Shown here: positions 6,001 through 9,000 of the stretch, piece after piece
Position numbering within the stretch: the first letter of the stretch is position 1
Layout of the letters: each line of letters opens with the position of its first letter
Source of the DNA: a virus
Lineage: Duplodnaviria; Heunggongvirae; Uroviricota; Caudoviricetes
IMG/VR virus record: IMGVR_UViG_2651869692_000003
Reading direction: 5' to 3' (one strand)
DNA length: 45,459 nt
Program-made: the position numbers

Positions 6001-9000
6001 TTACTTAATGCTTTTCGCTCCCATTCGGCGCATTGTTTTCCAAGCTCTGCAATCAGCTTGTCTTTGCCTTCCAGCTCAACTCGCAGCTTCCCTACCGTTA
6101 GCGCAATATCCTCGTTCTCCTGATCACGGCTTTTGATGTATTGCTGGTTTCTTTCCCGTTCATCCAGCAGCGCCAGCACGGTAGCTGGACTGGCTGCGGC
6201 GATGAATTCAGCATTGGCCTGCTGTTCCATTTGGAAATCTTCATCGAAACCGCTTTCAGGATGCGCTCCTTCAATTCTGCAAATGGGAATATATCCAGCA
6301 GCCTCGCGATGAATTAGCGCATCATCACAATCAAATCGGCTCTCTCCATATTCGAGCGACCATACACCACACGTTGCTTTTTCTGCCTTGGCACGCAGTG
6401 CCTCATAGTCAATCTTGCTCACTGGTTGCCTCCTTTGCGAATCTGTTCCGCCCATTCTTCAAGGGATTTCTCCGCATATTCACCGGACAGGCCATCAATC
6501 GGGTGCAGTTCATTAGCCAACTCTTCTTTCGCTGACAGAATCATGCGTGTAACGTCGAAAACTTCACGCAAAGACTTATTGATAAATCCGTGGTTGAAAG
6601 CAGCAGCAAGACGGCTGGCGGTATAGTTAATCCCCTCGTTGCGTGCTTCTGCACGAATTTCAGCCAGAAAAGCATCGGTAGCTGGGGTGTCTGATTGCAG
6701 AAACTTTGCGCGATAGTCATTCCACCCTCTTGCATACATGGGATTAACTTGCACTCCATCTTTTACGCAATATGCCTGCCCTCCACGGTTGATAACCTTG
6801 ATTTCGTCCATAGCGCCAGACTTCAGCCCCGCATTCTCCGCTGCCAGCGCCGCGCACTTGGCCTCAGCTTCAGCAAATTTACGCACCATATATTCAGCAT
6901 TTGTTTCGTTAACCTTTAAATCACATGAGATGCATTTACCTTTCAGAAATCCATCCATCTCAATTAGTGTCATTCGTTTCATTTCTTCCCACTCCGCCAC
7001 ATCGCATTCAGATATTTGTTTTGATTCACTGACGGAGAAGAATTTCTCTTAAGCAATTCCTCTCTCGATGGCATTGGCTTTACGCGTTGGCGAATAATCA
7101 TTTCTGCCGGAAGAATGCCGGGATTGTATGCAAGTCCTCTCATGGTAAATTCCTCAGTCATTACTGATAGCGCCATAGCGTGAGCGGTAATTACGCAGGC
7201 GCGGGTCGATATATTCAGGGAAGTGGGTATATGTGGCTTTGCGGAATGGTCGGATTGATGTCTGGTAAATTCGCTCGCGTTCTTCTTTCTCTGCAAGCCA
7301 TATACAGTGGCGAAATTCCTTTTCCTCTTTCGTTTCCTGCGGTAGAGACATTATTCGATCGTAGTTTTTTCTGAATTTATCCAGCACCTCCGATACGGAA
7401 TTGCCGGAACAGCGGCGCGCGTCATCCGCACCATACAGAGGCGCTGGCATGGTTTTCTCCTGATTAAATTGCGTGAATAGTGTGACGAGGGAAGGGGAGA
7501 GTTACTGGTGCAAAGGGTATATCGTCGTCAAAATCCATCGGAGGTTCGTTGTGTTGTGCTGGTGATGATTGCTGCTGTGGCTTCTGTGATTGCCTGCTGG
7601 CTGCTTGTTGTTTGCTGTCGCCAATGCCGCCAAGCATTTGCATCACGCCATTAATTCCGACATGAACCCCGGTTGTGTAACGGTCTTGCCCTGACTGGTC
7701 TTTCCACTTTCTGGTTCTCAGCATTCCCTCGAAATAAATCTGATCACCTTTTTTCACATACTGCCCCACGACCTCAGCCAGTTTCCCGGATACAGCAACA
7801 CGATGCCATTCAGTCAATTCCTTTTGCTCGCCAGTATTTTTATCTCGCCATTGTTCTGACGTGGCTATTGTCAGGTTAGCGAACGCTGTTCCTGATGGTG
7901 AGTATCGAACTTCCGGGTCTTGTCCTACCCGACCAAGGATAATCACCTTATTTACGCCTCTGCTTGCCATTTATGCTGCCTGTTTTAGTTCGTTAACTCT
8001 GATGTTCATTACCTGAACACATTTAGCCTGCGCCTCCTCGTTGCCAGCCATTAATTGCCAGTCACGCTGATAACGCTCGATGAGTTTTTTCTTGTCAGTT
8101 TCTGTCGCTGCATAATCGCTGAAGTCTTTCAGGATTTGTTCGCAGTCAACCGATGGAGATTTCTGGTTGGTATTTTCTGGTGATGGTTTGTTATCTGATG
8201 CTGGGATTGCCCATCCCGGCAGTGATGGAGGGAGCCAGTAAAATCCTGTTCCATCCTTCAGTTTTGCCCTGTGCCACCCCTGCTTTTTATCGAGAGATGT
8301 TTGTGCGAAACCTTCCTCAAGGTTATACAGATACCGACCGATTCCCCACTGAACGGCAGCGCGCTTCATTGCACCGGAACGACCGCCTTTGACAGCTTCT
8401 ACCTGCGTGTTTTCAGCAGCATCCCATTTGGTTACCCATTCGGAATCAATCCTGATTGATATGCCGCATTCAACGCCTCCGTTGTTGGGAATATCGCGGT
8501 ATTCATTGCGCCATCCTGCTTTGCCGCAAACATCGTCCAGGCGTTTCATGATTGCCCTGTTCGTGACATAAGCCAGCACCATAGCCCACACCTTGCCATC
8601 GCGTGTTTTACCGCTTTGCTGTATTCGCCATTCGATATCTTCAGGGCTGAATGGCTCATCGAATTTGTTCAAATCCATAATTCACCTCAGAATGGACACG
8701 GCCCAAGGAAATAACGCTGATTTAATACTTCGACTCGGGACAAATTAAGGCATACCCGCATTCCTTCGCGGTCGCCATTATGGCGATACCAGAGAGCTTT
8801 CTGCGTGTACATGCGTCTCTGTAACTTGCTCTCCTTCACTGTGGTTGCAAGTGACATGAATATCTCCTTCGTTACCGATTAATTCTTTCATCTGACGAAT
8901 GAATTCTTCGTCTGACCAGTTATCTGTAAAACTCATTTCCTGCGATACCACGGAAGGTTGATAGCTGATTTCATCGCTTTATTTGCTTCAAGCCACATTT

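Follow-up and report, generated by a model that had tools for sequence, protein, structure and literature searches.

The recombination module and its position in the prophage

The DNA considered here, referred to throughout as the window, is the whole 45,459-nucleotide stretch of the tailed-phage record IMGVR_UViG_2651869692_000003 from IMG/VR, and our subject is the recombination module that it carries at positions 7154-8678. The open reading frame (ORF) map shows three tightly packed genes on the minus strand, where the original prediction had placed them. These encode a 235-residue annealing protein, or annealase (7971-8678, stop included; supported by the ORF call, Pfam, PHROGs and BLASTP), a 168-residue SSB of the bacterial type (7464-7970, stop included; Pfam PF00436), a protein that binds to single-stranded DNA (ssDNA) and coats it, and the 98-residue protein Abc2 (7154-7450). 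The annealase stop codon, TAA, directly adjoins the ssb ATG, and the ssb stop is separated by 13 nucleotides from the start of abc2, which is preceded by an AGGAG ribosome-binding site. A small ORF of 56 residues (8687-8857, minus strand) lies just upstream of the annealase gene, with kil (8933-9085) upstream of it in turn; the window also holds genes for a lambda-type integrase (3266-4339), N (10328-10684) and a cI-like repressor (10914-11564), together with O, P, terminase gpA, the tape measure protein and J, the complement of a lambda-like prophage. Because the surrounding genes are those of such a prophage, the module can be assigned to the early-left operon, where it lies between kil and int and where pL presumably drives its transcription once the prophage is induced or the phage infects a cell.

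In a survey of 325 lambdoid phages, an 'HK75' Rec class of 27 members, with HK75 as its prototype, was defined by the presence of an anti-RecBCD protein, an SSB and a single-strand annealing protein (SAP), and by the absence of a nuclease (Genome Res 2025, PMC12315714). The module in the window has this makeup: its anti-RecBCD, SSB and SAP genes are contiguous in the early-left operon, and no nuclease gene accompanies them. The lambda exo, bet and gam genes had been predicted to be missing, and tblastn with lambda Exo, Bet and Gam indeed found no match in the window (best E values 0.12-0.83); the module is likewise free of Exo, HNH and DnaQ genes, in contrast to the modules of Sf6 and mEp235. 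We therefore consider it almost certain that this is an HK75-type lambdoid Rec module, composed of Abc2, SSB and a Rad52/Sak-type annealase.

The two downstream genes are what they had been proposed to be. Residues 6-104 of the SSB match the OB-fold domain PF00436 (E 1.8e-35), and the protein, of the type termed 'SSB-1' in the 2025 survey (PMC12315714), is 99% identical to the SSBs of HK75 and mEp235. The last ORF, tentatively called Abc2-like before, matches Anti-RecBCD_p2 (PF11043) over model positions 1-97 of 97 (E 4.1e-61) as well as phrog_656 (E 2e-56), and is identical to P22 Abc2 at 90 of 98 positions (92%). Abc2 binds RecC and blocks activation by Chi (PMC12315714; for the P22 protein also PMC9836394). 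At 92% identity, the Abc2 of the window would be expected to bind RecC in the same way and to alter the response of RecBCD to Chi. Abc2 modifies host RecBCD and does not destroy it.

A Rad52-type core joined to an Erf-like C-terminal domain

Residues 4-136 of the annealase (8271-8669, minus strand) match the Pfam family Rad52_Rad22 (PF04098) with an E value of 7.2e-26 and a score of 91.4 bits against a cutoff of 20.3, covering model positions 7-153 of 153. Within this core lies the signature helix GAMKRAAVQWGIGRYLY (residues 102-118; 8325-8375, minus strand), the motif from which a Rad52/Sak-type core had been proposed. Pfam ERF (PF04404) found no match in the annealase at E <= 0.1; as a control, residues 5-146 of P22 Erf match that model with an E value of 4.6e-46. 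The relationship to Erf is confined to the other end of the protein: in a domain-level BLASTP alignment, annealase residues 157-235 pair with P22 Erf 134-205 at 51 of 79 positions (65%; E 6e-31), and the N-terminal parts of the two proteins have no BLASTP similarity. The P22-similar stretch begins within the linker described below, at residue 157 (nucleotide 8210).

Considered as a whole, the annealase is matched along its full length (residues 1-235) by phrog_1097 (E 1e-129). A homologue search returned 5596 matches, many of them full-length, at identities down to 57% and from named Enterobacterales genera; the nearest cluster, P0016, is 98% identical, 235 residues long and made up of 1495 member sequences. 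As the annealase is, over its full length, an ordinary member of a large family, it is chimeric only relative to P22 Erf, and this is nothing peculiar to the prophage. The original prediction had set a domain-swapped protein against an ordinary member of a single family; the annealase is such a member, but its C-terminal similarity to Erf is nonetheless significant. Rad52-type annealases form rings through their N-terminal core and anneal complementary strands for circularisation, recombination-dependent replication and repair. From its family membership, the window protein would be a single-strand annealing protein of this kind, assembling into a ring, binding ssDNA and annealing independently of ATP.

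Beyond the core we distinguish a Trp/Pro-rich beta-hairpin segment (residues 129-160, GWHRAKLKDGTGFYWLPPSLPGWAIP; 8199-8294, minus strand), defined by conservation and an AlphaFold2 model, a disordered linker rich in Pro, Ser, Gln and Asn (residues ~161-178; 8145-8198, minus strand), defined by the predicted local distance difference test (pLDDT) and the alignment, and a C-terminal domain (CTD; residues 179-235; 7974-8144, minus strand), defined by BLASTP against P22 Erf and by the model. That model covers residues 126-235, was built on 40 homologues and has a mean pLDDT of 80. It places a two-stranded beta hairpin at residues 136-148 (pLDDT about 90) and helices at residues 179-192, 196-209 and 214-234 (pLDDT 80-90), and gives linker residues 162-175 a pLDDT below 50. 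The CTD is accordingly modelled as a three-helix bundle carried on a disordered linker of about 20 residues, and the linker varies in both length and sequence across the homologue alignment. A full-length model computed from the single sequence was poor (pLDDT 45), and phmmer and profile searches of PDB sequences with annealase queries did not reach a Rad52 chain.

Conservation within the CTD falls on hydrophobic residues (L183, F186, Y203, W207 and L231) and on three polar ones (Q217, R227 and E230). In the hairpin segment, W148, P151, L153, P154, W156, A157 and P159 are almost invariant among 81 homologues; its pattern, GW..K.KD....FYW.PP.LP.WA.P, which lies mostly past the Pfam Rad52 model, is found specifically in this Rad52-type subfamily. 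The resemblance of residues 129-164 to the WW domain of Prp40 is weak and non-significant (E 0.09 and 0.045), and no WW domain is proposed here.

No Pfam family matched the CTD. An exhaustive search with a CTD profile among 1.84 billion proteins yielded 21 representatives, mostly fragments, and the short ones proved to be truncated or frameshifted ERF- or Rad52-core proteins, on which ground a third CTD architecture was rejected. A word-indexed homologue search with the 62-residue CTD returned 15 short fragments only and is uninformative on architectures.

Exchange of the C-terminal domain between core families

Closely related CTDs are found on both kinds of core. For the type that we call allele A, P22 supplies the ERF-core example and the Salmonella protein P0021 the Rad52-core one, with 96% CTD identity over the last 55 residues; for allele B, the CTD of the ERF-core protein of Sf101 is 100% identical to that of the Rad52-core E. 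coli protein P0036. An Erwinia type pairs the ERF-core protein of Erwinia phage 49 with Rad52-core proteins P0077 (80%) and Erwinia P0103 (75%), and a Klebsiella type pairs that of Klebsiella phage GZ7 with several Rad52-core proteins, one of them from Enterobacter (64-67%). The CTD of the window, itself of allele A, is 65% identical to that of P22, and alleles A and B are about 37% identical to each other. These pairings indicate that the CTD has moved repeatedly between the two core families, and has done so in several host genera, in agreement with the modular exchange that had been predicted.

The DNA of P0036 points to where such exchanges happen. It resembles the window (98%) to about codon 167 and Sf101 (94%) from there on, and because its affinity switches at this codon, the crossover can be placed in the linker. 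We take the linker to be the site of the core/CTD recombination junctions. The Sf101-like part of P0036 comprises the CTD, the next gene and abc2. Similarly, an Erwinia Rad52-core prophage shares with phage 49 the two downstream genes (92% and 96%) in addition to the CTD (75%). In all three block cases, the CTD travels with the downstream genes and the core changes. Within the set of Rad52-core proteins, the core has a median identity of 84% to that of the window and the CTD one of 49%, a difference indicating that the CTD evolves faster than the core.

A fusion that includes the CTD was seen outside the window, on a 42-kb contig. The 106-residue protein P0003 begins with the Arg-rich N-terminus of an N antiterminator (MDAQTRRRERRAEKQAQWKAAN, PF11438), joined directly to the annealase linker and CTD; it is presumably a deletion derivative of the early-left operon of some prophage.

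Candidate partners of the C-terminal domain

We surveyed gene linkage at 160 IMG/VR loci, with the allele A set at least 98% identical; 76 allele A and 75 allele B loci were untruncated. Allele A was always carried on a Rad52 core and followed by SSB-1 and Abc2 (76/76), in arrangements that were nuclease-free or included a DnaQ or an HNH nuclease. Allele B was always carried on an ERF core and followed by a 127-residue protein and Abc2 (75/75), and the 127-residue protein is classed by PHROGs as an SSB, a divergent one (phrog_44, E 2e-27). Every SSB-like neighbour has a host-like acidic tip, ...D(D/S)IPF. These data fit a CTD that binds the tail of an SSB, of phage or host.

We infer that the CTD is a partner-interaction domain; in the literature searched, no identification of its partner was found. 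The explanation that we favour, at a probability of roughly 60%, is that within an HK75-type module the CTD is a docking adaptor to SSB-coated ssDNA and forms, with the downstream genes, one block. RecBCD modified by Abc2 would yield ssDNA, SSB would coat it, and the flexible CTD at the periphery of the annealase ring would dock the ring on the coated strand. The likeliest contact would be the acidic SSB tail, that of the phage SSB if the phage encodes one, and that of the host SSB otherwise. The CTD and the downstream genes would be inherited together, with the core swapped by recombination in the linker. The step from CTD to SSB, judged by itself, is more tentative, and we would put it at somewhat under even odds.

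Such docking would parallel two described cases, the Red-beta CTD and the SSB/Sak4 pair of HK620. Lambda Red-beta resembles the window protein in being a Rad52-superfamily annealase with a small helical C-terminal domain on a flexible linker. The Red-beta domain is reportedly a three-helix bundle that, in work by Caldwell et al. from 2019, is said to bind lambda Exo and E. coli SSB. Its structure, PDB 6M9K, is cited in the 2025 survey, which also records that SSB binds lambda Beta (PMC12315714), and PMC5052646 describes the domain as dispensable for annealing and required for recombination in vivo. No similarity between the CTD profile and Red-beta was found by hhalign. In HK620, the SSB tail is required for the stimulation of Sak4 (PMC5928155). 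A comparable layout has been described for Gp77 of SECphi27, an Erf-like protein that assembles into rings and triggers RAZR: its N-domain (1-125) forms a ring, seen as a 24-mer by cryo-EM, its C-terminal three-helix domain is flexible and peripheral, and its gene adjoins an SSB gene (Nature 2026, PMC13017515). Gp77 differs from the window protein in having an ERF-like core, and the likeness is one of described layout to a protein known from its sequence.

Several observations weigh against the docking explanation. Linkage of the CTD to a phage SSB is not universal: P22 carries abc1 in the SSB position, ABTNLsp11242 combines a B-like CTD with a canonical SSB, and of six further genera, four have an SSB next to the annealase and two have none. 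GZ7 and Erwinia 49, moreover, carry the CTD, and in their complete genomes neither Abc2, SSB, Gam nor Exo was detected. Simple adjacency of the genes, or some other host factor, would explain the data equally well.

One alternative has the CTD couple the annealase to Abc2-modified RecBCD, which would load it onto the unwound strand, so that a shared CTD reflects a shared Abc2. A RecBCD-loading model is said to have been proposed for P22 Erf in K. Murphy's work. P22 and the window do share the CTD and Abc2 (92%) and share neither the annealing core nor the SSB, and Abc2 is present in all 151 untruncated allele A and B loci. We nonetheless judge this unlikely. The Abc2 of Sf101 is 99% identical to that of the window with CTDs just 37% identical, and the two therefore do not co-vary; GZ7 and Erwinia 49 have the CTD with no detectable Abc2, and their small downstream proteins are unrelated to Abc2 by hhalign. 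Abc2 also reportedly functions with lambda Bet. Together, these data argue against Abc2 as the CTD-specific partner. It is similarly improbable, in our view, that the CTD has no external partner and regulates the annealase itself, through a ring-to-filament transition, the stability of annealed intermediates or autoinhibition, with co-inheritance a by-product of a recombination-prone linker. This would account for a CTD that stands beside very different neighbours, including in phages with neither SSB nor Abc2, and whose conserved residues are mostly core hydrophobics; PMC5052646 also describes C-terminally truncated Red-beta as able to anneal and unable to recombine, and speaks of intra- and intermolecular interactions. 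A specific intramolecular contact is hard to reconcile, however, with the fact that one and the same CTD works on two cores between which no sequence similarity is detectable, and in the ring of the Erf-like Gp77 the corresponding domain lies at the periphery on a flexible tether; the polar residues Q217, R227 and E230 are conserved as well.

We think it quite unlikely that the docking target of the CTD is a different host factor from SSB, for example part of the replisome or some other protein of recombination, with its fast divergence an adaptation to the host genus. In three of the four cases checked, the nearest CTD does sit on the other core type, in the same or a sibling host genus (Salmonella with Salmonella, 96%; Shigella with E. 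coli, 100%; Erwinia with Erwinia, 75%), the sole named top match of the Klebsiella phage GZ7 CTD coming from Enterobacter (64-67%); the CTD also outpaces the core in evolution and occurs where a phage has neither SSB nor Abc2. The same matching by genus, however, is just as much expected if phages recombine within a common gene pool. Moreover, alleles A and B, only ~37% identical, both occur in E. coli (A in the module of the window, matched in 1108 of 5426 complete genomes, and B in an E. coli assembly carrying P0036), and this argues against a single host-specific target.

An extended tail on the phage SSB

The SSB of the window has the host-like acidic tip DFDDDIPF at residues 146-153, followed by 15 more residues (the last 15 ssb codons; 7467-7511, minus strand). 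Because of this extension, the tip is internal and lacks a free carboxylate; the SSBs of Sf6, ES18 and other relatives end in a free ...IPF. In DNA, the final 44 nucleotides of the window ssb and the 3' end of HNH gene 26 of Sf6 are the same. A scar left by deletion of an HNH gene was considered as the source of the tail and rejected, for the motif also ends unrelated phage proteins: the same motif class closes the SSB of Vibrio phage K437b, Salmonella PVP-SE1 gp39 (...APIGLQYGRNFIHCI), an Acinetobacter ABPH49 protein (...APIGLQYARHAIHAI) and a Citrobacter Omnitron protein (...APIGLPFPSHSIYAL).

The sequences make it more likely that the Sf6-type HNH gene was inserted between the ...IPF and AP... 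of an ssb gene. In Sf6-type modules, the HNH gene lies exactly between the ssb ...IPF codon and the AP... tail codons, provides ssb with a stop and reads into the old tail, which forms the end of gp26. The arrangement is seen in Sf6 (locus L003, 3099-3578), in IMG/VR loci such as L017, L021 and L074 and in Cronobacter (L303), and an HNH gene stands at the ssb tip in 19 of the 76 allele A loci. It looks like the result of a homing-type insertion into conserved tip-coding sequence.

Scanning IMG/VR with a degenerate DNA pattern for DDDIPFAP identified extended DDDIPF-AP tails on at least 107 distinct proteins from at least seven unrelated families of phage ssDNA-binding protein; the 'AP' is imposed by the pattern, and these counts hence give no frequency. 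Extended tails are found at loci L012, L013, L014, L015 and L299 and at IMG/VR loci L178-L296, and fall into a 15-residue class to which the window belongs (AP[VI][GT]L[PQM][FY]P.H.I..[ILV]), a 9-residue class (AP.HHL.G.) and short hydrophobic ends. The tail motif was not found as a string in the literature searched, and extended SSB tails may be a new observation. It is conceivable, though we hold it improbable, that the 15-residue extension belongs to an undescribed class of phage SSB tail, that such tails isolate the SSB from the proteins that bind host SSB (ExoI, RecJ, RecQ and others) and steer it towards partners encoded by the phage, the CTD being one of them, and that the CTD is a portable adaptor with alleles matched to SSB tails, the two forming a private code between SSB and annealase in place of that of the host.

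Neighbouring genes and related modules

The 56-residue ORF upstream of the annealase resembles HK97 gp42 and Sf6 gp29 (phrog_1723, E 9e-36) and sits in the slot that arf occupies in P22. It has a ribosome-binding site (GAGG) and ends with a stop codon 8 nucleotides ahead of the annealase ATG. The ORF is present at this position in 74 of 76 allele A and 75 of 75 allele B IMG/VR loci, on either core. It has no Pfam match, and homology to P22 Arf was rejected in the absence of BLASTP similarity; the PHROG label 'recombinase' on phrog_1723 is no evidence of its function. An Arf homologue replaces the ORF in a few Rad52-core loci (L082; Klebsiella aerogenes L299), and the slot upstream of the annealase is therefore also shuffled.

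Downstream, in phages without a recognisable Abc2, two families of small proteins occupy the slot after the CTD-bearing annealase or its SSB. A 96-residue family of the phrog_38486 type occurs in GZ7 (L006, 2766-3056) and at L304 (3216-3500), L007 (3248-3637) and L300 (3658-4170), and a 103-residue family in Erwinia 49 (L008, 2776-3087) and at L302 (3226-3537) and L301 (3703-4017). Despite alike C-terminal motifs, remote homology of either to Abc2 was not supported, the hhalign probabilities being 0.3% for the Erwinia 49 and 2.4% for the GZ7 protein; they could be analogues of it.

Common lambdoid accessory genes occupy the remainder of the early-left operon, all on the minus strand: an ea8.5-like gene (5270-5551), an Ead/Ea22-like gene (5754-6455) and a gene for a phrog_614 protein (6419-7000), as well as a DUF2528 gene (9280-9648) and a gene for a phrog_1636 protein (9799-10269).

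The module is 97% identical in DNA over 1932 nucleotides to those of coliphages HK75, mEp235 and mEpX2, and 86-96% identical to those of Sf6, IME10, N7 and epsilon34, inserted nuclease genes aside. The three coliphages have the same gene order (kil, small ORF, Rad52-type SAP, SSB-1, Abc2) and share the ssb allele whose product has the extended tail; HK75, also lacking a nuclease gene, differs by point changes only, whereas mEp235 and mEpX2 have a DnaQ-like exonuclease gene between ssb and abc2. Matches to the last 85 annealase residues occur in 125 phage records, among them Sf6 gp28, ES18 gp49, ST64T Orf-235 and P22 erf, and HK75_32, mEp235_032, Sf6 gp28 and ES18 gp49 are the same protein as the window annealase. 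The same 235-residue combination of Rad52 core and CTD is present in epsilon34 gp36, ST64T Orf-235 and the 'Erf' of phage L, with 84-99% identity over those last 85 residues in Sf6, ES18, epsilon34 and ST64T; the modules of this group, which includes phage L, differ from that of the window in carrying an HNH or DnaQ nuclease gene and an SSB that ends in a free ...IPF. P22 shares the CTD, Abc2 and the early-left operon position after kil, and differs in its ERF core, in abc1 in place of an SSB gene and in arf in place of the gp42-like ORF. Among 5426 complete E. coli genomes, 1108 match the module, 356 of them covering at least 80% of it.

Annotation of these proteins has followed their C-terminus. 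The annealase is widely labelled 'Erf-like ssDNA annealing protein' or 'Erf' (phrog_1097 and GenBank/RefSeq records), a label owed to the shared CTD alone, as the Pfam ERF domain is absent (PMC2629481); the RefSeq name for the protein is 'Rad52/Rad22 family DNA repair protein'.

Implications

The recombination gene set and the swap between Erf and Rad52 domains are already known, and the module adds a further copy to a Rec type already catalogued, with a match in roughly one in five complete E. coli genomes. Work on P22-like phages has noted the swap from the genome papers of Sf6 and ES18 onwards, which were cited in 2008: the relatedness of epsilon34 gp36 to P22 Erf was described as limited to the C-terminal ~55 residues and attributed to a domain swap, with the ES18 genome paper among the works cited for it (PMC2629481), and the 'Erf' of phage L was described in the same way (PMC8022706). 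The 2025 survey set 'shuffling of partner interaction domains' beyond its scope (PMC12315714). The original prediction is thus correct, far beyond what chance would give, yet it is ordinary, and the domain swap at its centre is published. What we add is small: the architecture of the CTD, the occurrence of its alleles on both cores, the crossovers in the linker, the inheritance of the CTD with downstream genes and its presence in phages without SSB or Abc2.

The natural two-by-two set of cores and CTD alleles constitutes a ready experimental design for the question of what the CTD binds. If the extended SSB tail is functional, it would matter for which SSB/annealase pairs are chosen in recombineering and for the way in which phages shield their recombination intermediates from host nucleases that bind SSB.

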